From Armatimonadota bacterium (GTDB lineage Bacteria > Armatimonadota > HRBIN16): DNA of 64,000 nt. The translations under genes were made by a program, and so were the position numbers. The notes under the pieces were generated by a model. That model was given only the letters and a program-made list of their open reading frames with translations, was not told the DNA's origin and did not search any database. Location of the stretch: contig OY781964.1 in assembly GCA_963677485.1 (NCBI GenBank), positions 1,376,001-1,440,000 on the forward strand, written 5' to 3'. This document shows, one piece after another, positions 2 to 55,163 of the stretch. Every line of letters begins with the position of its first letter. The first letter of the stretch is position 1.

Positions 2-2521
2 CGTAATCTGGGCGATAAACCGGTGTTTGCCACCATCCGCATATACAGCGAAGTGGGCGGACCTGCGGAGTTCTTCTGGTACACCGCCACGCAGGGTGTG
101 CAGGCAGGGCATGAGGCCGCTTTTGTGGTGCCCGCGGGTCAGTGGGCGGAGGTTCTAGTTAATCTGCCCGCACTTGGCAGCAGCGGCGGCTTGAGACTTG
201 ATCCCCCTGGCAGCAGCGGCAAATGCATGGTGAACTGGGTTCACTTCGAAGAGCAAGTCGTCGTCAACCCTCCCGCCTGGACAGGCCCAACGATGAGCAC
301 ACCAGCCGCCGACTGGCTGACGGTGCGCAGCGGAAACACTTCACTGACCCATGACCCCACCCATTTCGGCCGGTTCTATGTCAATGTCAATGATGTGCAG
401 ACGGCCGCAGGCTGGGATCAGCCCTGGCTCTGCTTCCGCTCCACAACTGGTGCCCCGACATGGCTCAACCTGCTGGAAGGCGCGCACACCGTCCAAGCCA
501 TCACCAACGGCATCCAAAGTAAACTGATGGCCTTGGATACCGACGGGGCGATTTGGACATTTACCAACACCTTCACCCCGGGCGCGGTATCAGGCACCAT
601 CGCCTGTGCCAGCACCATCCGAGTAAACCAGACACGCCGCGCATGGTTTGTGCCCTGGATGGTGATGTTCCCCAAAGCGCGCGAGCGCGCGATGTTCCCA
701 GGCCTGGAGTATATGGACCCACTGGACACCTCCAGCAGCAAAGATGACATTGAAACCTGGGACTACCAGCGGCGCGCACCAGATCCTGAGAAGATGACCT
801 TCCCCATGCTGGCGATGCAGGCACAGAGCCGATGGATCGGTCTCTCCTGGGTCGACAACAGCAGATGCCAGCCGATTTTTGACAGTCCAGACCGAATTTT
901 CAGCTCTAACCTGAACTTCATGGGAGTCTTAGCCAGCAACTTCAACTCCAATCAACGCGACCCTGGCAGCCTGCTACCGGCTTTCGCCGAAGAGTTTGCC
1001 GCCAACACGGACATCACGCTGAACATGAACATCTCCGGTGGCAGCGGGCCCAACATGGTGCCGGCGATACAAACTTACGTGAAGCTGTATGGCATACCCC
1101 AGTTACCCAACCCAGGCCGCGACATGCAGAACTACGTCACATGGGCAGCCGGAGGCTGGTTGGACAGCAACATCCGCAGCGGCGATCTTTACCGGCACGC
1201 CACCTGGCCAGGTGCGAACAACTGGGCCCCTGCACCCGTTGGCGATGTGCCCTGGATGGAGCGTTGGCTGGCCGAGAACACCACCAACCCCACCCTCAAA
1301 ACACGGCTGCAGTCTGCTTCCGAAGGAGCAGCCGCACAGGTGATCGCAGCCGGAAGTGTGAACTTCCGTGGGGTCGCGCATGTGCAGTATCCCATCGCCT
1401 CACTTATCTTCACCGATGGGCTCAGCGGACCTGATATCGCGCTGGGCAGCGGCAACGGCCAGTATGCGCAGTTTACACCTGAGGGCACCGTGCTTTACAA
1501 CCCACCCGCCACTGGCAACGACCTTTCCCGAACGCACTGGGCGAAACATGCCAATGGCATGACTGCCGCGGTTTTGAAGAACGTGTGGGACGGGGTGCTC
1601 TACAGCGCCGACCCGACCCTGGGACAAAAGGCACTTACCATCACGGACATGCTGTCACAATATGACAATGAGGCCCCTCGTGGTGCGCAGACCTGGGAGG
1701 TACCGCTGCACACCCCAGACATTCTGGGCTCCGCTTACCTGGTCTACAGTAACCTGGCGGCGTATGAATACACCGGCAAGAAGCAGTACCTCGATAAGGC
1801 GATCGACTGGGCCTGGACAGGTGTGCCGTTCGTCTACCTGGTCAACCCGACGGCTGGCGCGATCGGCCCCTACGCCACCATTCCGGTGTTTGGCAGCACG
1901 CAGTTCACCTTGATGAACTGGATGGGTGTTCCGGTTCAGTGGTGTGGCATGGTGTATGCCGATGCCATCCGGCGTCTGCAGCGTTTCGACCCCACCGGAC
2001 CCTGGGAGATGCTCTGGAAGGGTATCACCATCTCAGGTATCCAGCAAAGCTTCCCCACCGGGCCCGACGCCACTCTACAGGGCACCTTGCCGGACTCGGT
2101 CAACCTGCGAGCCCAATCCCGCAACGGTGTGGCCATCAACCCCGGCACGGTGATGAGCTGCGCCACCAACTACTACCTGGGGATTCCGGCCTACGACTAC
2201 AGGATATACCGCAGTCTTGGGCTCATGGTGCATCTGCCGGGGCAATGGCTGCCTGGTGAGACCGTGATGAAGGATGAACTCACCTTCCGTGCGCAGCTCT
2301 GGACAGACGCGAAGATCATGGTGGTCGGGCTAAAGAGGTTCGGCATGGTGATGGTTGATGGCGTGGTGGTGCCTGTCGGACAGGGAGCCGCCTACGATCC
2401 AAATGGTCACCTGTTTGTAAACGCCACCAAAGGCATGCATACCATCAACATAAAACTCAATGCACAAACCACCCCGACAAACCCCGCGGGTGGGATATCA
2501 GTGCTCCAACGGAACAAATAA
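2..2521 (+). CDS. Large conserved hypothetical protein, probably carbohydrate-active; 5' end lies outside the window
   Basis: Frame is open from base 2 to TAA at 2519-2521. W/Y/P-rich, with a conserved-looking block PRGAQTWEVPLHTPDIL...YEYTGKKQYLDKAIDWAW resembling an (alpha/alpha)-barrel. Confidence 0.75.
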   Translation, partial: RNLGDKPVFATIRIYSEVGGPAEFFWYTATQGVQAGHEAAFVVPAGQWAEVLVNLPALGSSGGLRLDPPGSSGKCMVNWVHFEEQVVVNPPAWTGPTMSTPAADWLTVRSGNTSLTHDPTHFGRFYVNVNDVQTAAGWDQPWLCFRSTTGAPTWLNLLEGAHTVQAITNGIQSKLMALDTDGAIWTFTNTFTPGAVSGTIACASTIRVNQTRRAWFVPWMVMFPKARERAMFPGLEYMDPLDTSSSKDDIETWDYQRRAPDPEKMTFPMLAMQAQSRWIGLSWVDNSRCQPIFDSPDRIFSSNLNFMGVLASNFNSNQRDPGSLLPAFAEEFAANTDITLNMNISGGSGPNMVPAIQTYVKLYGIPQLPNPGRDMQNYVTWAAGGWLDSNIRSGDLYRHATWPGANNWAPAPVGDVPWMERWLAENTTNPTLKTRLQSASEGAAAQVIAAGSVNFRGVAHVQYPIASLIFTDGLSGPDIALGSGNGQYAQFTPEGTVLYNPPATGNDLSRTHWAKHANGMTAAVLKNVWDGVLYSADPTLGQKALTITDMLSQYDNEAPRGAQTWEVPLHTPDILGSAYLVYSNLAAYEYTGKKQYLDKAIDWAWTGVPFVYLVNPTAGAIGPYATIPVFGSTQFTLMNWMGVPVQWCGMVYADAIRRLQRFDPTGPWEMLWKGITISGIQQSFPTGPDATLQGTLPDSVNLRAQSRNGVAINPGTVMSCATNYYLGIPAYDYRIYRSLGLMVHLPGQWLPGETVMKDELTFRAQLWTDAKIMVVGLKRFGMVMVDGVVVPVGQGAAYDPNGHLFVNATKGMHTINIKLNAQTTPTNPAGGISVLQRNK

Positions 2522-2524
2522 AGC

Positions 2525-2553
2525 TAGACGAACACCAGGCGATGTGGTAAAAT
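2525..2553 (+). promoter_or_regulatory. Sigma70-type promoter for tRNA-Gln
   Basis: TAGACG, 17 bp spacer, TAAAAT with extended -10 TG, ending 11 bp before the tRNA. Confidence 0.6.
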
Positions 2554-2564
2554 ATCAACTGCAT

Positions 2565-2638
2565 TGCCTGGTCGTTCAACGGCAGGACAACGGACTTTGA
2601 CTCCGTTAATCGTGGTTCGAATCCACGCCGGGCAACCA
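2565..2638 (+). tRNA. tRNA-Gln (anticodon TTG)
   Basis: Cloverleaf: acceptor TGCCTGG/CCGGGCA, anticodon arm ACGGA-CTTTGAC-TCCGT, T arm CGTGG-TTCGAAT-CCACG, encoded CCA. Confidence 0.97.
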
Positions 2639-2909
2639 TTTCAGCCCCTCACACAGCTTCCCACTAGCCCTCTATATAAACCGATAATTCGTCATAAACC
2701 TTGTACATAACTAGTCGTAGGGGCGTCCCTTGTATGCTACGACAGTGTCTATTACAGTATGGGTTGACTTGAACTCAAGAGCAGTGCTTCAAAATAAGCA
2801 ATCGCCTGCACATTCGTTATCTAATATACTTTTATACACCACTATATATTGCATTGGCTCATTTTATGAGGGTATAATGAATGAACATTACGCTTCAAGT
2901 GAGGGTGCC

Positions 2910-3425
2910 ATGACTGATCAGACAGTTCCGTTTGAAACCACAATTCTTGAATTCGGCCCGCAGCGCATCATGGGGATGAGCGTGGTTACCGCCAACGCAA
3001 ATGGCGAGTGTGCTGCACTCTGGGGTAACGAAGGCGGTTTTGCCAACCGTATGAATGAAGTCAAACCGCCTAAAACAGGCGCACCCTGTTTTGGCGTCTG
3101 CCGGTGCGTTCCTGGCATCAGCGACGGCCGGTTTGAATACATCGCCGCGGTCAGCGCCAGTGCAGACGCCGTGTTACCTCAAGGCATGGTGGAACTCACC
3201 CTGCCAAAGGCGCAGTATCTGTGTATCACCGTGCCTGGTCTTGAACAGGTCGGTGCGGCTTGGAACTACATGGGCCAGTGGTGTACCGAGAACCCTGAGT
3301 GGCGCGGGTATTGCGATCAAAACGGCTGCGAATGCACCGAATACCCCGCGTTTGAATACTACACCTCGGAGTTCTTCACCACCAAAAAGCTCTATGTGTA
3401 TGTACCGATCCGTCCGAAGGAATAG
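2910..3425 (+). CDS. GyrI-like / AraC effector-binding domain protein
   Basis: GAGGG before ATG 2910. Motifs FEYIAAV, LPQGMVELTLPKAQY and FEYY...LYVYVPI are typical of GyrI-like small-molecule-binding domains. Confidence 0.8.
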   Translation: MTDQTVPFETTILEFGPQRIMGMSVVTANANGECAALWGNEGGFANRMNEVKPPKTGAPCFGVCRCVPGISDGRFEYIAAVSASADAVLPQGMVELTLPKAQYLCITVPGLEQVGAAWNYMGQWCTENPEWRGYCDQNGCECTEYPAFEYYTSEFFTTKKLYVYVPIRPKE

Positions 3426-3451
3426 GGGTTGGGTTACACGACGGGAAATGT

Positions 3452-3782
3452 AATCCACAGATTTCGCAGATTACGCAGATAAGATAATAACCGCACCGAT
3501 TATCTCCTAACTGCGACGGTTTGTAGGGGCGGGGTCTCCCCGCCCACACCAATTGTGATCCGTCCGATCCGTCTCATCCGTCCGATGCCCGGAATGTCTG
3601 AACCACGGATTACGCGGATGACACGGATGGGTTCGGATGGGAGGGGAATTGCTAAACATTTCGTTCCCCATCCGTGTTCATTCGTGTTCATCCGCGGTTC
3701 AAATGCGCCCCTAACGGGACGAGTAGGACAGGGATTTACGGTTCCCCATCCGTGTTCATTCGTGTTCATTCGTGGTTCAGAA
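3452..3782. repeat. Cluster of short intergenic repeats (nonamer-period tracts, a GTAG REP, a 40-bp direct repeat)
   Basis: cacagatttcgcagattacgcagat; gtaggggcggggtctccccgccc; gatccgtccgatccgtctcatccgtccgat; gttccccatccgtgttcattcgtgttcat at about 3663 and 3741. Confidence 0.75.
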
Positions 3783-4889: not shown

Positions 4890-7282
4890 CAGAACAAAAC
4901 AGCACACCAGAACCCGCTGATAATATCAGCCAGCCGGAAACTCCGGAGACGAATGAACAACCAGAAATGGTTGAAGCAACCCCAGAGCAAGCGAATACAG
5001 ATATCCAAAATGACGAAAACATAATCGACGCAGAAGATACGTCCGCTGATCAAGATATGTCCGATGATTCCGACTTGTCTGAATTATCTGGCAAGTCTGA
5101 TGAATCTGACCTGACCGACTTATCTGACAAGTCTGATGAATCTGAACTGACCGACTTATCCGACTTGTCTGAGACGCCTGACAGCGTAGATGCATCCACG
5201 GGACAGGTCTACGATACCCCTAAACTCAACCAGCGACAGCTACACCTAATGGAGCGCGTAGAACAGCGCATTCTCATCGGTGGGGCAGAGCCGCCGCATG
5301 TCAGCATCATGTCCAACTCCGTGGGAGCACCCCCTGATGCTATCCGGGCGATGGCCGCCCTCCTGGTCAAACGCGGCAAGATTTATATCATGGCCGACGA
5401 TCTCTACATCCACGCTCTCAGTTTCGAAGAGGTGGAAAGCCAGATCCGCGGTTATATCCAGAAAAATGGATCTGTCACAGTCAGCCAGTTGCGAGACTTT
5501 TTGGGCACAAGCCGACGGTTTGCCCATCCGCTGCTGATGCTGTTTGAAGTACGCAATCCAAACTCGAATCCCCGTCCCATGGGCGACAGCTATGCACCAG
5601 ACGACGAGAATGATGATGATGGTCCGATGCCCACATGGGAAGAATACCAGCAGTCACTGCTCTCCTCGCGCGACCGTGTCCGCATGGAGCGAACCGCAGA
5701 GCGTTCGAGCGGAGGCTATGGCCGTCCTCGAATGAATGCTGATGGCCCATCGGCAGGCGGCGGACGCAGCTTTGATCGTCCTCGTGACGGCGGCGGTGCC
5801 CGACCCAGCTTCAACAGAGACGATCGTCCACAAAGAAGCTTTGACGGACCACCAAGAGATGGCGCACGGCCAGCGGGCGGCGGTTACAACCGCGAAGGCG
5901 GCGGCGACCGACCCAGTTTCAACAGGGACGACCGACCACGAAGAAGCTTCGACGGACCACCAAGAGAAGGCGGGCGGCCCCGCGACGCAAGCTATAACCG
6001 TGAAGAAGGACGTCCAGCAAGAGAAGACGGACAGCCAGCAGGCGGCGATCGGCCCAGCTTCAATCGGGACGACCGGCCACGCAGAAGCTTTGACGGACCG
6101 CCAAGAGAAGGCGGACGGCCAGCAGGCGGCGGATACAACCGCGAAGGCGGCGGCGACCGACCCAGTTTCAATAGGGACGACCGACCACGCAGAAGCTTTG
6201 ACGGACCGCCAAGAGAAGGCGGGCGGCCAGCAGGCGGTGGTTACAACCGCGAAGGTTGCGGCGACCGACCCAGTTTCAATAGAGACGACCGACCACGCAG
6301 AAGCTTTGACGGGCCACCAAGAGATGGTGCACGTCCTAGCGGAGGCGGGTATGGCGGACGACCTGCAGGCGGCGGTTACAACCGTGACGGCGGCGGCGAC
6401 CGACCCAGTTTCAATAGAGACGACCGACCACGCAGAAGCTTTGACGGACCACCAAGAGATGGTGCGCGTCCTAGCGGTGGCGGGTATGGCGGGCGACCAG
6501 CAGGCGGCGGCTACAACCGTGACGGCGGCGGCGACCGGCCCAGTTTCAACAGGGACGACCGACCACGCAGAAGCTTTGACGGACCACCAAGAGATGGTGC
6601 GCGTCCAAGCGGAGGCGGATATGGCGGACGACCAGCAGGCGGCGGTTACAACCGTGACGGTGGCGGCGACCGGCCCAGTTTCAACAGGGACGACCGACCG
6701 CGCAGAAGCTTTGACGGACCACCAAGAGATGGTGCACGTCCTAGCGGTGGCGGGTATGGTGGGCGACCTGCAGGCGGCGGTTACAACCGTGACGGCGGCG
6801 GCGACCGACCCAGCTTCAATAGAGATGACCGACCGCGCAGAAGCTTCGACGGACCACCAAGAGATGGTGCACGTCCAAGTGGAGGCGGCTATGGTGGACG
6901 ACCAGCAGGCGGCGGTTACAACCGTGACGGCGGCGGCGATCGGCCCAGCTTCAATCGGGACGACCGACCACGCAGAAGCTTTGACGGACCACCAAGAGAA
7001 GGTGGACGTCCTAGTGGCGGCGGCGGTTACAGTGGTGGCGGACGTCCCAGTGGCGGCGGTGGTTACAGCGGTGGCGGACGTCCCAGTGGCGGCGGCGGCT
7101 ATAGTGGTGGCGGACGCCCAAGTGGCGGCGGCTACAGCGGTGGCGGACGCCCAGGTGGCGGCGGCGGTTACAACCGCGATGGCGGCGGCAGGCCGTCAGG
7201 TGGGGGCTTTAATCGAGGCCCGCGCCCTGATGACCGCGGCGGTCCGGATCGTAGGCCAGGCGGCCCTCGTAAACCAGAGTAG
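4886..7282 (+). CDS. Protein with acidic N-terminus, SelB C-terminal winged-helix-like domain and a long RG/GY/P-rich repeat tail
   Basis: ATGA-coupled to DUF167. VTVSQLRDFLGTSRRFAHPLL resembles the SelB WH4 motif; 10 copies of RPSFNRDDRP follow. Confidence 0.75.
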   Translation: MTEQNSTPEPADNISQPETPETNEQPEMVEATPEQANTDIQNDENIIDAEDTSADQDMSDDSDLSELSGKSDESDLTDLSDKSDESELTDLSDLSETPDSVDASTGQVYDTPKLNQRQLHLMERVEQRILIGGAEPPHVSIMSNSVGAPPDAIRAMAALLVKRGKIYIMADDLYIHALSFEEVESQIRGYIQKNGSVTVSQLRDFLGTSRRFAHPLLMLFEVRNPNSNPRPMGDSYAPDDENDDDGPMPTWEEYQQSLLSSRDRVRMERTAERSSGGYGRPRMNADGPSAGGGRSFDRPRDGGGARPSFNRDDRPQRSFDGPPRDGARPAGGGYNREGGGDRPSFNRDDRPRRSFDGPPREGGRPRDASYNREEGRPAREDGQPAGGDRPSFNRDDRPRRSFDGPPREGGRPAGGGYNREGGGDRPSFNRDDRPRRSFDGPPREGGRPAGGGYNREGCGDRPSFNRDDRPRRSFDGPPRDGARPSGGGYGGRPAGGGYNRDGGGDRPSFNRDDRPRRSFDGPPRDGARPSGGGYGGRPAGGGYNRDGGGDRPSFNRDDRPRRSFDGPPRDGARPSGGGYGGRPAGGGYNRDGGGDRPSFNRDDRPRRSFDGPPRDGARPSGGGYGGRPAGGGYNRDGGGDRPSFNRDDRPRRSFDGPPRDGARPSGGGYGGRPAGGGYNRDGGGDRPSFNRDDRPRRSFDGPPREGGRPSGGGGYSGGGRPSGGGGYSGGGRPSGGGGYSGGGRPSGGGYSGGGRPGGGGGYNRDGGGRPSGGGFNRGPRPDDRGGPDRRPGGPRKPE
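5795..7190 (+). repeat. Coding tandem repeats: 108-bp (36 aa) and 135-bp (45 aa) units, then about 30-33-bp GGGRPSGGGGYS units
   Basis: Five amino-acid-identical 45-aa units start at about 6263, 6398, 6533, 6668 and 6803, with synonymous differences between copies. Confidence 0.95.
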
Positions 7283-47973: not shown

Positions 47974-48006
47974 GCCCGCCTGGCCGCATACTGCGGTCAG
48001 GCGGGC
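47974..48006 (+). terminator. GC-rich 15-bp hairpin after the FGE-domain gene
   Basis: gcccgcctggccgca-tac-tgcggtcaggcgggc; no U-tract. Confidence 0.45.
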
Positions 48007-48213
48007 TACGGGCCTGAGGATTCGCAACTCATCCCATCCTCGGTAAAACTGAGTTCCGCAGTTCGCATGGTGAATGAACCGGTTTTGTGATCAGGACGGC
48101 ATTTCAAATGCCTGTATTTTGCCTGGCGATCAACAACAATAACTCATCGTAAAGTCGTTAGATATCCGTGAATAACCTATCAACTGAGGAACTCGGGCTA
48201 ATCACCACAGCCG

Positions 48214-48470
48214 TCATCCCAAGCGCCTGGCCGCCCGCACACGAAAAACATGGGTGCGGATATCCGCCATCTCGAAAGCGATCACCGACACTCCGTGCCA
48301 CTCCAAAGGACGGTCGACAAACAGCTCCTCCACATCACAAGGCTGACCCAGCTTGATGCTCTTTTGGCCAGGATGGTTGCTGTGGATGGTGATGGTTCCG
48401 TTGCCGGCGTAACACGCCGTTTCGACGTTTGATCTCGCATCGGGGAAATCTGTTCGGGAGTGCGGGTCTG
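48214..48470 (-). pseudogene. Orphan 3' fragment of a glycoside-hydrolase-type gene
   Basis: Startless open frame ...ACYAGNGTITIHSNHPGQKSIKLGQPCDVEELF...THVFRV, resembling C-terminal beta domains of beta-galactosidase-like proteins; closed upstream by TGA. Confidence 0.5.
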
Positions 48471-48729
48471 TTCATTTGTTAAGCCTCATACCGGTGGATT
48501 TATCATGTGATGACCGTTCAACAATCAATCTACCACGCTTTACCGGTAGATTCGTGAATATGGATAGAACATCCCACTGCATGGATTTCCGTGCTAAACT
48601 AGAAATCAGGCCATGCTGTGCCACCGAATCAGCCCGCAGATAGGCCAAAGTAAATAAGGATGCGGTACGCTGGCCGCACCACCAACATTTTCTCTATGAG
48701 CTTCGAGCGAACCCCCTGGAGGAGTAACC

Positions 48730-50148
48730 ATGAAGATTGCCATCATTGGCGCGGGAAGCATTGTCTTCGCCAAAACGCTCATCAACGACATTCTGTCAAC
48801 GCCGGCACTGCAAGGATGCGAGCTGGCTCTGATGGCCCCCACCGAGCCCAAACTGCGGCGTATGGAAGCCTTCGTGAATCGCATGATCACGGAGAACGGA
48901 CTACCCGCCTCAGTGTATGCCACCACCGACCGGCGTGACGCCATCACGGACGCCGATTTCGTGATCTGCATGGTGCAGGTGGGCGGTGTGGACGCCTTCA
49001 AGATCGACTATGAAATCCCCATGAAATACGGCGTCGATCAATGCATCGGCGACAGCCTGGGCCCAGGCGGCGTGTTCCGGTTGCTGCGCAGTATGCCCGT
49101 AATGCAGGGGATGATGAAGGACATCGAAGAGGTCGCCAAACCGGGCGCCATTCTGCTGAACTACACCAACCCGATGGGCGCGGTGTGTACCGGTCTTGGC
49201 CGCATTTCGAATGTGCCCTCCATAGGACTCTGCCATGGTGTGCAGACCACGCTGGACCTGATCAGCGGATATGTGGATGTTCCAAAACCGCAGATCGACT
49301 ACCTCTGCGCGGGCATCAACCATATGACCTGGTTCCTGAAGCTGGAGCATGAGGGCAAAGACCTCTACCCGCTGTTCAAAGAGCGTTGCGAACTGCCGGA
49401 ATACTACATCAACGAAAAGGTCCGTATCGAAGTGATGCGCCATTTCGGATATTTCATGACCGAATCCACCGGCCACCTCAGCGAGTATGTGCCCTGGTTC
49501 CGCAGTAGTCAGCGCGGTCTGGACACCTACTGCGATGAGCCCGATTTCGGCGGTGCCACCGGTGCGTATTACAAATATTGCGATTTCATCGCCGACAAAT
49601 ACTCCAAGGTCGACCCGCTGCAGTTCGAGAGTCCAGTGCTGCTGCCGCGCTCCGCGGAGTATTGCAGTTACATCCTTGAAGCCCACGTCACCGGCCGACC
49701 GTTCCGGCTGCAAGGCAACGTGCGCAACGACGGCTACATCACCAACCTGCCTCAAGGCTGCTGCGTAGAGGTGCCCGTCTACGTCGACCGAGAGGGTCTG
49801 CACCCGCTGCACATCGGCGATCTGCCGATGCAGTGCGCCGCACTGAACCAGAGCAACGTGACCGTGCAGGCACTGGCTGTGGAGGCCGCTCTGACTGGCA
49901 ACCCCGAATATGTGATGCAGGCTGTGGCGATGGATCCGCTGACCAGCGCCTGCTGCACCCTGAACGAGGCACGCGAGATGACCGCGGAGATGCTGGCCAA
50001 AGAGGCGAAATGGCTGCCGCAGTTTGAGGGCAAATCGCTGAAGGCGACTCCCGCCGTGATCATCCCTGCGGATGTGAAACGCGCTGAGGTGCCCACCGAC
50101 CCCGCGCTGGCCATCGGCAAGCGATTCGGCACCCTGGCTACGCAGTAA
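48730..50148 (+). CDS. melA: GH4 alpha-galactosidase (MelA-like)
   Basis: KIAIIGAGS, D.EIP.KYG, LNYTNPM, GLCHGV, AGINH, TES..HLSEY.PW. Confidence 0.9.
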   Translation: MKIAIIGAGSIVFAKTLINDILSTPALQGCELALMAPTEPKLRRMEAFVNRMITENGLPASVYATTDRRDAITDADFVICMVQVGGVDAFKIDYEIPMKYGVDQCIGDSLGPGGVFRLLRSMPVMQGMMKDIEEVAKPGAILLNYTNPMGAVCTGLGRISNVPSIGLCHGVQTTLDLISGYVDVPKPQIDYLCAGINHMTWFLKLEHEGKDLYPLFKERCELPEYYINEKVRIEVMRHFGYFMTESTGHLSEYVPWFRSSQRGLDTYCDEPDFGGATGAYYKYCDFIADKYSKVDPLQFESPVLLPRSAEYCSYILEAHVTGRPFRLQGNVRNDGYITNLPQGCCVEVPVYVDREGLHPLHIGDLPMQCAALNQSNVTVQALAVEAALTGNPEYVMQAVAMDPLTSACCTLNEAREMTAEMLAKEAKWLPQFEGKSLKATPAVIIPADVKRAEVPTDPALAIGKRFGTLATQ

Positions 50149-50158
50149 GGCGCGAAGG

Positions 50159-50187
50159 CGTAGGGGCGAGGTGACCTCGCCCCTACG
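50159..50187. repeat. GTAG REP hairpin
   Basis: cgtaggggcgag-gtgac-ctcgcccctacg, perfect 12-bp IR. Confidence 0.8.
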
Positions 50188-50219
50188 GCCGCATGGCTCC
50201 GCCCTATCGACACGTAATG

Positions 50220-50325
50220 TCCCAATTCGCGACGCGCTGCGTCGCGAATTGAGTTAGACACATTTCGACACACTGCTACCCAATTTGGAACGCACTGCGT
50301 TCCAAATTGGGTAGGCCACACGACC
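50220..50325 (+). repeat. Two degenerate palindromic copies of an internal segment of the downstream YhcG gene
   Basis: Copies align to 50631-50690 and translate as PIRDALRRELS*THFDTLL and PIWNALRSKLGRPHD, against the gene's PIWYAVRTELSWTHYRTIL. Confidence 0.88.
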
Positions 50326-50344
50326 TTCACGAGGAGGTTGTTCG

Positions 50345-51394
50345 ATGACCGATGAGATAATATCCACCACCACGATGGATGGTCTGCTAACTCAATTACG
50401 CGGACTGATCCAGGATGCGCGTCAGCAAGCGTTACGCGCCGTGGATGTAGTTCAAGTACGAACCTGCTGGGAGGTCGGACGCCATATTGTGGAGTATGAA
50501 CAGGGTGGTGCGGATCGCGCGCAGTATGGCCAGAAGCTTCTATTACGTCTGGCAGAGCGGCTGACAGACGAGTTCGGCAGTGGGTTCGACCAACGCAACC
50601 TCAGACATATGCGGTCATTCTACCAAGAATTCCCAATTTGGTACGCAGTGCGTACCGAATTGAGTTGGACACACTACCGCACCATATTGCGAGTTGATGA
50701 TCCAAACGCCCGCGAGTGGTACATGGATGAAGCTGCGACACAAAACTGGAGCACTCGGACATTGGAACGCCAGATCGGCACCCTCTATTACGAGCGGTTG
50801 CTGGCATCACAAGACCGTAAAGCCGTGGTCGATGAGGCGGTGTCCAACATCGCACCGCTGCAAAAAAGCCCTCGGGAGTTCGTCCATGATCCGGTGATGC
50901 TGGAGTTCCTGGGTCTGCCCGACAGCGGGCGTCTACTGGAAGCCGATCTGGAGAAAGGGATCATTGATAACCTCCAGCAGTTCCTTATGGAGCTGGGTAA
51001 GGGCTTTGCATTCGTCGCGCGTCAGCAGCGGATCAGCACGGAGAGCACAGACTTCTATATCGATCTCGTGTTCTACAACTACATCCTAAAGTGCTTCGTG
51101 CTGTTTGACATCAAGACTGGCAAACTATCGCACCAAGACATCGGTCAGATGGATATGTATATCCGCATGTATGATGACTTGAAGTGTGCCCCCGACGACA
51201 ATCCCACGGTGGGCATCGTGTTGTGTGCTCAAAAAGATGCGTCGGTGGCACGATATTCGGTTCTGCATGAGCACGAGTACCTGTTCGCCTCACGGTATAG
51301 ACTGGTGCTGCCATCAGAGGAAGCACTTCAGGCCGAACTCGATCGTGAACATAACCGGTTGATGGAACAGTATACCGAATACCGCATGAACTAA
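50345..51394 (+). CDS. YhcG / DUF1016 family PD-(D/E)xK nuclease
   Basis: WEVG..I, LSWTHY, WSTR.L.RQI, LMELGKGFAFVARQ, IDLVFYN, DIGQM, NPTVGI.LC. Confidence 0.93.
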   Translation: MTDEIISTTTMDGLLTQLRGLIQDARQQALRAVDVVQVRTCWEVGRHIVEYEQGGADRAQYGQKLLLRLAERLTDEFGSGFDQRNLRHMRSFYQEFPIWYAVRTELSWTHYRTILRVDDPNAREWYMDEAATQNWSTRTLERQIGTLYYERLLASQDRKAVVDEAVSNIAPLQKSPREFVHDPVMLEFLGLPDSGRLLEADLEKGIIDNLQQFLMELGKGFAFVARQQRISTESTDFYIDLVFYNYILKCFVLFDIKTGKLSHQDIGQMDMYIRMYDDLKCAPDDNPTVGIVLCAQKDASVARYSVLHEHEYLFASRYRLVLPSEEALQAELDREHNRLMEQYTEYRMN

Positions 51395-51471
51395 GCCTTG
51401 GCTGATACCCCCCTGCATCATCGGCTCCGGTTTCGCTGTACAATACAACAAATAACCACTCGGAGGACGAC

Positions 51472-53025
51472 ATGAGCAGCGAACTCAGCCTGGACATCTG
51501 GGACTGGACCGCACCAGCAAAAGATCTGACGCTCTGGAAGACATGGTGCCAGGATTTTAAGCAGTTGGGCGGTACCCGCATCGAGTTGAGCGTGCCGTGG
51601 AGCACAATCGAACCCCAACCCGGACAGATCGAGCTAAGCTGGCTGAATGACCATCTGAGCATCTGCGAACAGCTTGGACTGGGTATGAGGCTGCGCATCA
51701 ACAGCTATTATGCGGGATGCGTGCCAGCCTGGTATGACGGCGACCTCTGGGTTGCGGCTCCTGGTCTGCCAGCTTGTCAGTTCAAGATGCCCTCCATCGC
51801 CGATGACCGCTTCTGGGCGCACTTTGGGCCGATCTGCACCGCCATCGCCAGTGCCGTGAAAGGCAAGGACGTGCTGTTGAATAGCTTCACCGGCGTCCAT
51901 GCCGAACTGAAGTTCGCGGACTGGTGGAGCTGGGACCCAAGTTGCCTGCGCATGTGGCAACAGGCCCTCAAGAAGCGGCCGATGTGGCTGAAGCGGATCT
52001 GCGGTAACGCCTCGCTGCCTCAAGTTCCGGTGCTCCCACCTCAGACCAATGGTCTGCCCGATATCTCAGCCGAAAGCCGGGCGACCATCGCCTGGCGCCA
52101 GCAACTCTGGAGGGATGCCACTCAGAGGTTCATCGCGGCCTGCCGCAAAGGCGACCCCAATGCCAAAATCAGTTGCCCGCTGGGAGAAAGCTTCCGCCGG
52201 CAGAGTGCATCGATGAGCAACCAGGACTACTGGGGCTGCACCCGCGACGCCAACCAGGTGGTGCATTCCTACGATTTTTTCTGGCACCCGGGCTCTACAC
52301 CCGTCTGGCATGTGCGCGCCGTCGTGCAGGCATTCCAGGGGATCACCCGACTGCCGGTCTGCTTCGAGTTCGACTCGCCGTTATCCATAGAAAACAACGG
52401 CTACACTGTACCGATCCAGAAGCGAGTGGCGGAAGAAGTGGTATCCACGGGTGGAGGTCTGAAAATGGCCAACTTCAGTTACTACAAAACACTGCCCAGC
52501 GAATATCCGCTGATTACACACAGCGGCCGGCTCGTGCGGAACCAGCAGCTCGAAGCACCAAAATGGAATGAGCCCAACACCATTCTGCTGCTGATGAGCA
52601 ACTGGGTGACCTATTGCTACCGTGAAGAATCCGAGTGGCTGCACGACGCCATGTTCGGCTGGTGGAAACTACTGACCGACGCCGGCTTCAACATCCGCAT
52701 CATCTGCGAGGAGAACCTGAGCGAGGAGCTGAGCAGATACCGCGGACTAGTGGTGCCCTATCTGCCCGATGGAGTGCTTCCCACCGACAGCATTAAGGCC
52801 CTGGGGGCGTTGACCATTCCACTTTTTGTGGAGCGCGCAACCGGTGCTTTCCAGCCCGAACAGCACGCCAAGGTAGGCTGGGTCACACCCGCATGGCAGC
52901 GCAGTGCGTTTGGTGCCGAGTGCCAAACCACGCTGCCCATCGGCTGGAGCTACTTGCACCATGAGGACGCCTCCCTTGCTCAGCAGATCGCCCGCGAATT
53001 CGAGCGTTTTGGCATGAAGCGATAG
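51472..53025 (+). CDS. Clan-A-like glycoside hydrolase (GH42/GH14-like TIM barrel plus trimerisation-type domain)
   Basis: VPWSTIEPQPG.....WLND, P.W, candidate CFE nucleophile. Confidence 0.7.
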   Translation: MSSELSLDIWDWTAPAKDLTLWKTWCQDFKQLGGTRIELSVPWSTIEPQPGQIELSWLNDHLSICEQLGLGMRLRINSYYAGCVPAWYDGDLWVAAPGLPACQFKMPSIADDRFWAHFGPICTAIASAVKGKDVLLNSFTGVHAELKFADWWSWDPSCLRMWQQALKKRPMWLKRICGNASLPQVPVLPPQTNGLPDISAESRATIAWRQQLWRDATQRFIAACRKGDPNAKISCPLGESFRRQSASMSNQDYWGCTRDANQVVHSYDFFWHPGSTPVWHVRAVVQAFQGITRLPVCFEFDSPLSIENNGYTVPIQKRVAEEVVSTGGGLKMANFSYYKTLPSEYPLITHSGRLVRNQQLEAPKWNEPNTILLLMSNWVTYCYREESEWLHDAMFGWWKLLTDAGFNIRIICEENLSEELSRYRGLVVPYLPDGVLPTDSIKALGALTIPLFVERATGAFQPEQHAKVGWVTPAWQRSAFGAECQTTLPIGWSYLHHEDASLAQQIAREFERFGMKR

Positions 53026-53081
53026 CCGAGGTGTTATTGGACGGATCGGCCTGATCCGTCCAACTTACCCACACAAAACCC

Positions 53082-55163
53082 CTACTCCCCGATGAAGAAC
53101 ACCACCTGAGCCTCGTTGGCAGCCATCTCCAAGGTCAGCTTCACACGGCCGTCAGGCAGCAGCTCCCAGCGGTCAGCCCCCTTCAGCTCACGCAGCTTCG
53201 TGGTGTCGATGGGCTGCGTGACATACACCACCTCGCCCCGGTTGGCGGTGAACAGCACCACCATGCCGGAAGCGCACTCCGGGTCGATCTTTTCGTATAC
53301 TTCCGGGCTGGTGCCGATCTGGCCGGTCAGCCGTGGATAGGAGCGGTTCACGGCATCCGCCACCTGCTTGTAGTCGTTGATGCCCGTTGACCACAACTCA
53401 ATATCCTCTGGCGTCAAGCTCAGCAAGTCGCCCCAGATGCCGTTTCCGCCCAGCAGCATCGAAGCAAGGCTGTTGCGCTGCGACAAAGCCGGTGCGTCCG
53501 GCAAATAGTGCGTGAGGAACAGGATCGACGGAATGAGCTCGTCATACTTCAAACCCTGACGGCAGATGCGCGGACGGGCCGCCCCCGGATGGAAAAACAC
53601 ATTGATGGTATTCGGCTCGATTTTGATGCGCGCGGGGATGTCGAAGTCGTGGTAGTATGGCCCGTTGTTCACCAGGAAATACTTGCCGACGGATAGGAAG
53701 CCCAATCCCATGAAACGCTGGCCCTCGGTGATATCAAAATCCACGATCACATCAGGGCGTTGGGCGGTGACCTCCTCCACGATCTGGATCATCCGCCGCC
53801 CCATCTCGTAGGCGTAGCAGTCCTGACGCTCTTCCGAGGTGTGGCTTTCATTGCCATGGTCGTGCAGAGGCGAGTCGCAGCCGTACTGCGAGATTCCGTC
53901 CCACTTGAAGTAACTCACGCCCAACTCATCGCGCAGCCGGATCATGGTCTGCACATAGTGCGGCACGTATCCCGAAGCCAGGCAGATCGCGCAACTTTGT
54001 TCTGTCTCCCACACCTCGCCGAAATCCCATGGCTTGCCGTTTTGGGTGATGACATATTCGGGGTGGCTCTGCATGATCCCGGAGCTGCGGGCGGCCACAA
54101 TCGGGTTGAACCACAGCCCAAGCTTCATGCCATACCCTTCCAGTCTGGCGCGCACCTCCTGCAGACCATCCGGGAAGCGTTGAAGGTTCACCAGCCAGTC
54201 ACCCGTCTTGGTGTACCAGCCGGTGTCGATCACATATACATCGATGCCCAGCTTGTGTGCGACGTCAATTTCCGCCAGGATGTGCTCAAGATGCATCGTC
54301 TCAAGGTACGGGCGGCCGTTGTAATAGCGGTTCCGCTCCTGGAAATTCCAGGTGTTGTAGAAGATATACGGCTTGCGCGACTCGCAGTTCTCGCTGATCT
54401 CCTCCAGCATGAACTGCCGGTAGCGGCGCAGCAAAGCCTCGCTGTCACCATCGACCAGGCCTAGCTCAAACCAGACCGTCTCAAAGCCACGACCCTCGTC
54501 TAGCCGAAGACCATCGTAGAAGTTGCCCTTCACGGCCTGTAGGCTGAGATTCTTCTCCTCCAGGCCTAGCTCAAACTGAAGGAAGCTGTTGGGCTGATCG
54601 GCACCATGCTCATACGCCAGCAGCAGGCTCTGTTTGGAGTCATTCAACACCACGATCGGCCCGGTGAGGTTCTGACCGTCATACAGCTCAGACCATTGGT
54701 ATCGGTGCTGCTGCGGCACATAGCAATGCACGGTGGGATCGAAATGCCCAAGCTGAATCTGCGTCAACTGCTCGCTAGGCGGCCACTCACTCAGCGCGAA
54801 GTAGCGCAGGTAGTCACTGCCGTCGTTCTTGGTCATACGGGCTGGAACGTCAGAATGGATGCGGTACCGGAAGCGCAGGAACGGCGAATCCTCAAACCCG
54901 CGAAGCTGAACATCCAGCCGGATGGGCACAGGCACGTCCACCGTAAAGTGCGCCACCCACTCCAGACCGCCATGCCGCAGTGCCCGAGGCTCCGAGCAGC
55001 CCTCGTATTTGAAGTCAAACACCACATGACCCTCCACCTCCAGGACCGGCGGCAGGATGTGGTATTGCTGTTTTGGTGCGCTCTCGGTCGCTGCGCAGAG
55101 CAACACACCCGGTTTCCCGAGCGTGATTTGCAGTTTTCCAACGGACAGCTTATGTGTGGTCAT
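53082..55163 (-). CDS. GH36-type alpha-galactosidase
   Basis: YNTW, VIDTGW, RFPDGL, GMKLGLW..P, YFKWD. Confidence 0.85.
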   Translation of the reverse strand: MTTHKLSVGKLQITLGKPGVLLCAATESAPKQQYHILPPVLEVEGHVVFDFKYEGCSEPRALRHGGLEWVAHFTVDVPVPIRLDVQLRGFEDSPFLRFRYRIHSDVPARMTKNDGSDYLRYFALSEWPPSEQLTQIQLGHFDPTVHCYVPQQHRYQWSELYDGQNLTGPIVVLNDSKQSLLLAYEHGADQPNSFLQFELGLEEKNLSLQAVKGNFYDGLRLDEGRGFETVWFELGLVDGDSEALLRRYRQFMLEEISENCESRKPYIFYNTWNFQERNRYYNGRPYLETMHLEHILAEIDVAHKLGIDVYVIDTGWYTKTGDWLVNLQRFPDGLQEVRARLEGYGMKLGLWFNPIVAARSSGIMQSHPEYVITQNGKPWDFGEVWETEQSCAICLASGYVPHYVQTMIRLRDELGVSYFKWDGISQYGCDSPLHDHGNESHTSEERQDCYAYEMGRRMIQIVEEVTAQRPDVIVDFDITEGQRFMGLGFLSVGKYFLVNNGPYYHDFDIPARIKIEPNTINVFFHPGAARPRICRQGLKYDELIPSILFLTHYLPDAPALSQRNSLASMLLGGNGIWGDLLSLTPEDIELWSTGINDYKQVADAVNRSYPRLTGQIGTSPEVYEKIDPECASGMVVLFTANRGEVVYVTQPIDTTKLRELKGADRWELLPDGRVKLTLEMAANEAQVVFFIGE

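Follow-up and report, generated by a model that had tools for sequence, protein, structure and literature searches.

Nearly all genes of the YhcG/DUF1016 family that we analyzed, yhcG of E. coli among them, carry a palindrome of 29 nucleotides in the codons of one loop of the encoded protein, and at some loci extra units of the same kind are present in or beside the gene; we hold this description to be very probably correct. Judged from the sequences, the in-gene palindrome characterizes the family as a whole and is not peculiar to one locus, a point overlooked in the preliminary description of the locus analyzed here. As the best explanation, we propose a gene-resident dyad DNA unit, which would be bound by YhcG and of which the upstream copies are extra units. 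We give this explanation as a whole a probability of about 0.4.

The gene under study encodes a YhcG/DUF1016 protein of 349 amino acids, possesses both PF17761 and PF06250, and occupies positions 50345-51394 on the plus strand of the window (the whole stretch of DNA that was analyzed, 64,000 nucleotides). A ribosome-binding site, GAGGAGG (50331-50337, plus strand), was read from the sequence 7 nt 5′ of the ATG at 50345, and the same site is found in the sister species G001. Three palindromes (listed without strand) are present at the coordinates first reported. The upstream palindrome upA (CAATTCGCGACGC-GCT-GCGTCGCGAATTG, 50223-50251) possesses 13-nt arms, which are 100% complementary and have 3 nt between them. 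The second upstream palindrome, upB (50276-50314; core 29-mer, 50281-50309), possesses 19-nt arms, also 100% complementary, around one central nucleotide. The in-gene unit (CAATTTGGTACGCA-G-TGCGTACCGAATTG, 50634-50662) possesses 14-nt arms, which are 93% complementary with 1 nt between them. Its T.G mismatch is forced by a Glu codon, and a proper pair is found at that place in the non-coding upB; the upstream copies are perfect because there is no coding constraint on them. The in-gene unit corresponds to codons 97-106 (PIWYAVRTEL), and the last of these residues is the L of LSWTHY. The gene copy translates as PIWYAVRTELSWTHY, upB as PIWNALRSKLGRPHD, and upA with its 3′ flank to about position 50265 as PIRDALRRELS*THF. 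The peptides in the preliminary description were thus reproduced by translation, and the arm cores covary between the three copies as it had stated: blocks are conserved at the outer (CAATT) and inner (ACGC) arm ends, and the core between them is variable.

In a repeat search, the three palindromes formed one direct-repeat family of 52 nt, with spacings of 58 and 353 and 62-77% identity to upA. When the pattern CAATTNNNNACGCNNNGCGTNNNNAATTG was searched with at most 2 mismatches, three sites were found in the 64-kb window, as compared with none in each of 100 shuffles. In the whole genome of 5,220,040 bases, the pattern is found at those three places only. A chance origin of the three palindromes is excluded. 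The folding energies of upA, upB and the in-gene unit as single-stranded DNA are −16.7, −21.3 and −11.5 kcal/mol, with z values against shuffles of −6.1, −9.0 and −7.1, respectively. The GH4 gene upstream is followed, directly after its stop codon, by a perfect 14-bp hairpin (50159-50187, plus strand; arms 50159-50172 and 50174-50187, 100% complementary), which is unrelated to the units and forms the left limit of the intergenic region. This hairpin is probably a terminator-like stem of the GH4 gene. A scan of positions 50050-50750 for T-tailed terminators and for promoters of the sigma-70 types gave none.

The palindrome was then scored over the family. The site was defined as 14+1+14 bases ending at the L of LSW(S/T)H, with a maximum of 14 Watson-Crick pairs. 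In the genome sample of 79 DUF1016 genes from many phyla, with synonymous recoding or resampling as the control, the mean was 11.13 of 14 pairs, as compared with 5.80 after synonymous resampling. By the same resampling, the excess palindromy had p ≤ 0.05 in 69 of the 79 genes and p ≤ 0.005 in 62. At least 10 of 14 pairs were found at 67 of the 79 canonical sites, versus 0.02% of 9006 control 29-mers from the same genes. When the right arms were shuffled among the 75 distinct sites (2000 shuffles), the mean was 7.99 and the maximum 8.71, versus 11.01 observed. An independent phage and prophage sample gave p ≤ 0.05 at 29 of 34 distinct sites, with a mean score of 8.94 versus 4.21. The comparison with codon-shuffled controls, which had been suggested as a check, thus placed the palindromy far above the controls in both samples. 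The palindrome is found at the homologous position in bacteria, in an archaeal MAG (L060) and in phage contigs, at protein identities of 27-73%, and the helix downstream of the unit carries LSW(S/T)H or IPWGH. The arms covary, and the middle positions 6-9 take G-C, C-G, T-A or A-T with few mismatches. Next to the one-base centre, A is found at 56 of 63 sites, as compared with 12.9 expected from codon usage. This innermost A mirrors an obligatory T across the centre, and such a pair cannot form in a hairpin. The dyad symmetry accordingly runs through the centre, as in a dyad operator (56/63 innermost A; 11.1/14 paired).

The protein belongs to the YhcG/DUF1016 family: PF17761 matched residues 18-151 (E 2.3e-45; 154.5 bits, cut-off 32.8) and PF06250 matched residues 178-332 (E 3.8e-55; 186.5 bits, cut-off 32.5), both above the gathering scores and in the order of an N-terminal helical domain followed by a C-terminal PD-(D/E)xK nuclease domain. 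In the AF2 model (mean pLDDT 82.3), the in-gene unit encodes the loop between helices 83-95 and 108-115. The unit-encoded loop is also the most variable part of the N-domain. Fold matches of the N-domain to HTH proteins by Foldseek were weak (ParB/Noc, E 0.05-0.09); from these matches, the AF2 helices and the resemblance to a known motif, residues 108-145 may be HTH-like. A PDB sequence search with the single protein and with a profile gave no solved relative of the N-domain, and a profile match to Lmo2812 (E 0.012) looks spurious. A homodimer was predicted by modelling: the model scored 0.69, versus 0.00 for the best of three controls, and among proteins of known structure, 20 of 30 that pair two copies of one chain attained this mark, as did 1 of 23 with a lone chain. 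In the model, at least 85% of the contacts agree between runs, the partner pLDDT is at least 73 and the interface is formed by the long N-terminal helices. For the nuclease domain, the best structural matches were NucS/EndoMS 2vld (E 3.8e-05) and 5gke (E 2.0e-04), over about 114-124 aligned columns with a TM of 0.25-0.36. A passage of PMC1189080 had linked this domain to archaeal Holliday-junction resolvases. The protein also matched the PADLOC PDC-S02 profile PDLC04807 (E 2.4e-143, residues 8-343), and many PDC-S02 fragment models in PADLOC start or stop near residues 98-127. PDC-S02 is a candidate single-gene phage defence in PADLOC, and is a predicted candidate only in the passages of papers that use this term.

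Extra copies at other DUF1016 loci, for which a search had been recommended, are present upstream or elsewhere at the locus. By inspection, roughly 11 of 76 loci in the genome sample possess extra family-type units, and at most loci the in-gene copy alone was seen. In-frame arrays of units are found at loci L085, L077, L079, L060, L099 and L156, and copies upstream or at the first codons at L034, L011, L078 and L152. At L078, a truncated N-terminal copy, which ends in two units, lies directly 5′ of the full gene. Eight palindromes are within 15 mismatches of the canonical unit of their own locus, seven of them within 461 nt of it. Escherichia coli K-12 yhcG possesses three units in frame and one after its stop codon, and another follows gltD; these five units, all within 3360632-3368994, are the total for the K-12 chromosome. 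In O157:H7, yhcG possesses one in-frame unit, and the difference of 78 nt from K-12 is in frame. In many E. coli genomes, breakpoints fall in yhcG unit 3; some yhcG copies break off at unit 3 and continue into foreign DNA, with IS1 there in one case. A 101-aa ORF annotated as 'transposase' beside a truncated E. coli yhcG gave no Pfam or NCBIfam match. The copies of one locus (upA and upB, or the E. coli units) differ at the middle positions, yet each of them is self-complementary. Several extra units, namely units 2, 3 and 5 of E. coli, lack the innermost pair.

We propose the following explanation. The three palindromes are, very probably, copies of the same short DNA unit, which has dyad symmetry and a length of about 29 nt, and one such unit always lies in the loop codons that precede the LSW(S/T)H (or IPWGH) helix. 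The arms change together, so that the DNA symmetry sets the pairs of amino acids open to the loop. The unit also multiplies locally, in frame in the loop, in the 5′ leader or first codons, or directly after the stop codon, and the two upstream copies are extra units placed between the end of the neighbouring gene and the ribosome-binding site. In the mechanism that we rank highest, the unit would act as double-stranded DNA, as the cognate site of homodimeric YhcG; the upstream units would then be added sites at the promoter, and self-recognition or autoregulation would move with the gene between genomes. Arm symmetry would be kept by selection, aided by template-switch copying between the arms. 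Among the readings in the preliminary description, whose interpretation is partly supported, a putative operator or target site for the protein encoded by the gene thus ranks first. Binding of YhcG to the unit is the tentative part of the explanation, as is any regulation of the gene by such binding. It may be, although we think it doubtful, that the in-frame dyad acts in cis and is recognized by the encoded dimeric nuclease, as a duplex or an extruded cruciform. Its codons would form the hypervariable loop that adjoins the putative DNA-binding helices; the site and the protein loop would then be the same DNA and would have to change together, the gene would be a self-recognizing module, and extra copies would bud off in frame or beside the gene. 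Several observations weigh against our explanation. The differences between copies of one locus at the middle positions are needless if one protein reads all of them; copies that differ yet stay self-complementary are more readily explained by pairing within a strand or by copying from one arm to the other than by readout of the sequence. At most loci, moreover, the single copy lies about 290 nt into the gene, an odd position for an operator. The lack of the innermost pair in E. coli units 2, 3 and 5 and the weak HTH matches also count against it.

Alternatively, the units might act as RNA, as hairpins in the yhcG transcript which govern how stable the mRNA is or how well it is translated, for example by offering double-strand RNase sites or by pausing ribosomes, so that the level of a toxic nuclease stays low. 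All extra units seen are located where the transcript could hold them (the leader, in frame or after the stop codon), and the stems are very stable. Furthermore, G.T, the wobble pair of the sense strand, is the commonest single mismatch class across the sites (43, as compared with 29 A.C and 49 other mismatches) and includes the single mismatch of our gene, which leaves room for a single-strand role. However, A.C is nearly as frequent, and when the 17 G.T mismatches forced by Trp and Glu codons are set aside, the 26 that remain are not above A.C; in true RNA helices, G.U is tolerated far more than A.C. The symmetry includes the base next to the one-base centre, which is unpairable in a hairpin. 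Because a clear G.U excess is absent and the symmetry reaches this base, the unit looks like a feature that works as DNA and not as RNA. In addition, Rfam gave no match beyond chance-level miRNA and sRNA ones, and T-tract terminators are absent from the scanned region. A structured cis-regulatory RNA was thus rejected as a class for the unit, and we consider a role as RNA unlikely.

Similarly unlikely, in our judgment, is a functionless palindrome that perpetuates itself in a permissive loop, where arm-to-arm template switching would keep the symmetry, hairpin-promoted slippage or rearrangement would make copies, and the upstream copies would be by-products. Several of the observations above agree with this idea: copies that differ from one another are still self-complementary, the symmetry passes through the centre as expected from templated copying, the loop tolerates arrays, the number of in-frame units varies within E. 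coli, and many E. coli genomes have breakpoints in unit 3. A passage of PMC8794818 states that template switching makes and maintains perfect stems, and we count this for the functionless reading. However, the palindrome is at the same position in bacteria, an archaeal MAG and phage contigs at the protein identities given above, and no other 29-mer of these genes is alike. Persistence without selection is hard to credit over this range. Nor are the units scattered over the genome (three in G000, the genome of the window, and five in K-12).

Comparison of G000 with related genomes bears on the remaining explanations. G000 and G001 share one in-gene allele, and their upstream units differ. The non-coding region has strongly diverged between them (23-33 of 60 positions are the same), and the four upstream units of the two genomes hold 12-14 of 14 pairs despite this divergence. 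An identical block of about 240 bases around the palindrome in G000 and G001 was considered as extra synonymous-site conservation; it is absent in five other close pairs, and we take it to be specific to this pair. G002 possesses neither the gene nor the units: the units come with the gene. The GH4 gene of G002 has other neighbours, and the empty-site comparison gave no insertion borders. In G001/X6, the units stand in the opposite order to that in G000. When the two-unit segments of G000 and G001 were aligned, the score was 41.5 in inverted versus 20 in direct orientation, a better inverted alignment that the palindromes themselves give; with the spacer alone, the inversion test was not significant (p 0.15). 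Differential loss from a longer array fits the swapped unit order equally well as inversion.

The swapped order is one of the observations that would agree with units serving as recombination or cleavage sites, that is, as hairpin or cruciform substrates of a Holliday-resolvase-like or NucS-like nuclease or as targets of mobile elements, at which parts of the gene are exchanged, inverted or replaced and the upstream copies are scars or partner sites. In particular, it is possible that the palindromes are hairpin substrates for the YhcG nuclease, as was suggested in the preliminary description, and the nuclease domain does resemble NucS/EndoMS and had the earlier tie to Holliday-junction resolvases in PMC1189080. 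The E. coli truncations at unit 3 with foreign DNA (IS1 in one), the truncated copy at L078 that ends in two units before the full gene, and the PDC-S02 fragment models with ends near residues 98-127 point in the same direction. However, a mosaic signal is absent: module shuffling at the palindrome was rejected, since the identities of the N- and C-modules correlate (r 0.75) and none of 2080 pairs lies beyond 3.4 sd. Furthermore, a recombinase gene is absent nearby, and the inversion test was not significant. We regard this explanation as quite improbable.

The lead proposal of the preliminary description, in which the upstream copies are silent donor cassettes that would diversify the loop through gene conversion of the in-gene segment, found no support and is very improbable. 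In its favour, conserved CAATT and ACGC blocks surround a variable core in the manner of cassette systems, no part of the N-domain varies more than the loop, and upA and upB match in-gene alleles of other taxa (28/29 bases the same for L031; 27/29 for L027, L037 and L099). Against it, the in-gene allele is the same in G000 and G001 although the upstream units are not, the homology is only about 45 nt, an upstream copy is absent at most loci, no reverse transcriptase or recombinase is present within 48000-54000, and the check for allele exchange gave no alternative in-gene allele in contigs of four runs (contigs drop rare variants). In E. coli K-12, L099, L085, L077, L079 and L060, the extra units are in frame and translated; therefore, they are not silent donors there. 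A cassette- or DGR-type diversification system was rejected on the same observations. The upA palindrome is also found inside another DUF1016 gene on one metagenome contig, which has loose ends.

Palindromic protein sites inside coding sequences are known: parS in spo0J/parB of Bacillus subtilis, lacO2 in lacZ and galOI in galE. Like the DUF1016 unit, these are short palindromic sites within an ORF, with partner sites near the promoter, and parS also lies inside the gene of its own binding protein, although for YhcG the binding is putative. In contrast to the DUF1016 unit, they are conserved in sequence within a single lineage, without covariation over a family, dictation of a loop across phyla or in-frame multiplication. 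REP/BIME elements are extragenic, number hundreds per genome and are accompanied by a HUH tyrosine transposase (RAYT). They resemble the DUF1016 units in being short imperfect palindromes, often in tandem, which flank a gene whose protein presumably acts on them. However, the DUF1016 units are few, intragenic or adjacent to the gene, and accompanied by a PD-(D/E)xK nuclease; a REP/RAYT system (REPtron) was rejected on this basis, with 3 copies in 5.22 Mb here and 5 in K-12 at one locus. An integron attC site was also rejected, as no integrase gene lies in the vicinity, the site is intragenic and the arms match perfectly or almost perfectly. A CRISPR-like arrangement (29-nt repeats with a 29-nt spacer) was likewise rejected, since it amounts to two dissimilar repeats and no array. 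NucS/EndoMS (2vld, 5gke), a dimeric DNA enzyme, is the best structural match to the YhcG nuclease domain, but the N-domain of YhcG is unrelated to it. To our knowledge, no in-gene palindrome exists in nucS. Rickettsia palindromic elements (RPE; Ogata 2000, 2002) are described in a passage of PMC4316617 as about 100-150 nt long and located in many unrelated genes and intergenic regions of one genus. They likewise place palindromic DNA in frame at permissive surface positions without destroying the protein. The DUF1016 unit differs in its length of about 29 nt and in its restriction to a single homologous position in a single family, across many phyla, and with three copies in the genome, all at the DUF1016 locus, a Rickettsia-type coding element was rejected. 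Passages of PMC8794818 and PMC5453318 on template-switched stems describe one-step compensatory changes, which similarly keep palindrome arms matched; however, these passages concern the origin of RNA hairpins and mutation clusters and not a conserved element in a protein-coding family.

No description of an in-gene palindrome in DUF1016 or yhcG was found in the papers searched or in Rfam, in agreement with the statement in the preliminary description that no mechanism is described for this arrangement. Our results point to a DNA signal, so far undescribed, that is carried inside a protein-coding gene. Members of the YhcG/DUF1016 family are found in bacteria, archaea, phages, plasmids and conjugative elements. 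The family is among the most widespread uncharacterized nuclease families and includes a candidate defence gene of PADLOC. A palindrome that overrides codon choice and dictates paired loop residues across phyla means strong selection on DNA within an ORF. For annotation, a DNA-level cause lies behind the hypervariable loop of DUF1016 genes, their in-frame repeats and their frequent truncation. The unit also offers a concrete handle on the function of the family, as the first candidate for a substrate or binding site, and K-12 offers five units at one locus. If the unit is the site of the protein itself, this would be a rare case in which the same bases encode a binding site and part of the binding protein. 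If the gene is a self-recognizing module, it would represent a new class of coding-embedded element, a portable means of autoregulation or self-marking of a defence nuclease, which is present in E. coli K-12.

Re-measurement of the coordinates confirmed that three palindromes of the same type, hereafter units, lie at the YhcG/DUF1016 gene of the window, as the preliminary description had claimed. The gene (50345-51394, plus strand, 349 aa) matches both YhcG/DUF1016 Pfam domains, and its neighbors are a family-4 glycosidase (GH4) gene on one side and another glycosidase-like gene on the other. The two upstream copies, upA (50223-50251) and upB (50276-50314), have perfect arms of 13 and 19 nt, respectively, and the in-gene copy (50634-50662) has 14-nt arms with one T.G mismatch. 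Read in the register of the gene, upA gives PIRDALRRELS*THF, upB gives PIWNALRSKLGRPHD and the in-gene copy gives PIWYAVRTELSWTHY. The common pattern matched three times in the window and not at all in 100 shuffles, and a scan of the whole 5.22-Mb genome, in which this is the only DUF1016 gene, gave no match beyond these three. The sequence of upA equals the in-gene allele of another locus (L031) at 28 of 29 bases, and upB agrees with the in-gene alleles of L027, L037 and L099 at 27 of 29; the upA palindrome was also found inside a different DUF1016 gene on a metagenome contig. The stop codon of the GH4 gene is directly followed by a perfect 14-bp hairpin (50159-50187), which lacks a T tail and shares no sequence relationship with the units.

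The in-gene palindrome characterizes the DUF1016 family as a whole. Among the first relatives fetched, 8 of 10 motif sites were palindromic, with 8-14 bp arms right before LSW(S/T)H or IPWGH, and their sequences were mutually quite different. The main sample comprised 80 loci from one-genome-per-species contigs (46-73% protein identity, many phyla and an archaeal MAG), of which four had no match to the motif expression. We applied a dyad test with fixed geometry (14 + 1 + 14 bases, ending at the L codon) to 79 genes. The mean number of Watson-Crick pairs was 11.13 of 14, compared with 5.80 after synonymous-codon resampling with the usage of each gene; p was ≤0.05 in 69 genes and ≤0.005 in 62. 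At least 10 pairs were present at 67 of the 79 sites but in only 0.02% of 9006 control 29-mers from elsewhere in the same genes. When right arms were redealt among the 75 distinct sites, the mean was 7.99 and the maximum 8.71 (2000 trials), against an observed 11.01. An independent, more distant sample of 50 virus-contig loci (27-52% identity, IPWGH subfamily included, motif unmatched in 10) gave 34 distinct sites with a best-palindrome score of 8.94 versus 4.21, and p was ≤0.05 in 29 of them. Because all four pair types occur at the middle arm positions with few mismatches, the DNA symmetry couples amino acids across the two sides of the encoded loop (for example, RD..RH, RE..SL and WN..RS). 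Thus, the unit is family-wide, covaries and overrides codon choice.

The 63 distinct good sites had 43 G.T, 29 A.C and 49 other mismatches, and 17 of the G.T mismatches are a Trp/Glu codon clash at position 9. Therefore, the wobble excess expected of RNA is absent. Furthermore, 56 of the 63 sites have A next to the single central nucleotide, whereas codon usage predicts 12.9. This innermost A mirrors an obligatory T, and such a pair is unable to close a one-base loop. These results show the strand-symmetric character of the unit and favor DNA, by duplex dyad recognition, a two-strand cruciform or copying in which one arm serves as template for the other. Within a locus, the copies have different middle positions, although each is self-complementary; intrastrand pairing or arm-to-arm copying fits this better than pure sequence readout.

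In a genome of the same genus (G001), the same DUF1016 gene (96% amino acid identity) is at the same place and likewise has two upstream units. Unlike the window, the TGGAAC-type unit is first and the CGCGAC-type second, and a contig of sequencing run X6 has this same order. The intergenic DNA of the source genome and G001 shows 23-33 identities per 60 columns, and the flanking genes are about 90% identical. Nevertheless, the four upstream units of these genomes keep 12-14 of 14 pairs, and two of them are distinguished by a double substitution of the innermost pair (A-T versus G-C). Because symmetry is kept in diverged DNA, something actively maintains it. Another genome of the genus (G002) has neither the DUF1016 gene nor units after the GH4 gene. 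Within the gene (50470-50700), about 240 consecutive bases are identical between the source genome and G001, against about 90% identity in the surrounding DNA; this block stops shortly beyond the in-gene palindrome, and no comparable block was found in five other close gene pairs.

Extra units were counted by inspection at roughly 11 of 76 loci; most loci have the in-gene unit only. Escherichia coli K-12 yhcG, the namesake of the family, has three in-frame units with a period of 39 nt and a fourth 16 nt past the stop codon. A scan of the whole K-12 chromosome gave five units, all within 3360632-3368994 (reversed-pattern control, one). The fifth (3360632-3360656; 5633-5657 of the fetched locus L104) lies 16 nt past the gltD stop codon, at the left end of the gltF-yhcA-F segment; in an O157:H7 record without this segment, yhcG comes directly after gltD, which has no unit behind it. 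Arrays of 2-4 in-frame units were seen at L085, L077, L079, L060, L156 and one DUF1016 gene of L099. At the latter locus, two DUF1016 genes from different subfamilies lie side by side (1200-2520 and 2501-3557), and the upstream gene has four in-frame units before LSWSAN. Copies are upstream or at the first codons at L034, L011, L152 and the truncated upstream copy of L078. At L012 and L159, a family-type unit occupies a second position within the reading frame: that of L012 (around 1655) encodes IVQTLSAQL, part of the helix that follows the YG motif, and this locus lacks palindromy at its canonical site; that of L159 is 136 nt before the canonical site. In the 76-locus scan, eight palindromes differed by ≤15 mismatches from the canonical unit of their own locus, seven of them within 461 nt of it; the other, 2.1 kb away, is probably a chance match. 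Thus, the unit multiplies locally, and the objection considered in the preliminary description, that upstream copies might be absent from other DUF1016 loci, falls because they recur. A near-perfect palindrome with 45-bp arms, 1.3 kb downstream of a Pseudomonas DUF1016 gene (L027, 4000-4089), is unrelated to the unit.

The unit region was matched in 3973 of 5426 E. coli genomes and at least 80% covered in 2858. In 30 rows sampled evenly down the match ranking, three were a form 78 nt shorter, five ended at query base 194, one began at base 173 and one covered bases 146-194 only. O157:H7 has one, perfect unit. In one strain, yhcG breaks off within the right arm of unit 3, beyond which the DNA is foreign; another has IS1 at unit 3. 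Therefore, the units are fragile or recombinogenic. This fits both a site of recombination or cleavage and a self-perpetuating palindrome without cell function. The proposal that the upstream copies are donor cassettes was not supported. In some E. coli genomes (L106, 2694-3170; L108), about 480 bp of other DNA follows the cut inside unit 3; a 101-aa ORF in it, annotated as transposase, matched no Pfam or NCBIfam family.

In the AF2 model (mean pLDDT 82.3), residues 97-106 form a well-defined loop that connects helices 83-95 and 108-115, and in relatives this loop tolerates unit arrays. Residues 108-145 may be a helix-turn-helix; the N-domain has weak ParB/Noc-type matches at best. For the nuclease domain, the closest match is NucS/EndoMS (2vld, E 3.8e-05; 5gke, E 2.0e-04); an earlier link to DUF91 and archaeal Holliday-junction resolvases was made by Kosinski et al. 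(PMC1189080). The predicted homodimer score was 0.69, versus 0.00 for the best of three controls; among proteins of solved structure, the mark for this score is attained by 20 of 30 same-chain pairs and 1 of 23 single chains. Contact agreement between runs was at least 85% and partner pLDDT at least 73. These predictions support a homodimer, which would form via the long N-terminal helices. PADLOC classes the protein as PDC-S02, a candidate defense gene (50345-51391). The PDC-S02 profiles include many fragment models ending or starting near residues 98-127, which suggests that databases commonly contain split or truncated forms with a break near the palindrome.

No description of such a unit was found in the literature searched or in Rfam. 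The unit lacks the defining features of the REP/RAYT, RPE, attC and DGR systems. Known systems that come closest include protein-binding palindromes within genes, for example parS in spo0J. The coding palindromic elements (RPE) of Rickettsia (PMC4316617) are also among the closest. We rate the unit as belonging with cis-acting palindromes inside genes; that it is something categorically new seems unlikely. We infer that the unit may be the cognate DNA site of the dimeric YhcG protein and that it may regulate or mark the gene.
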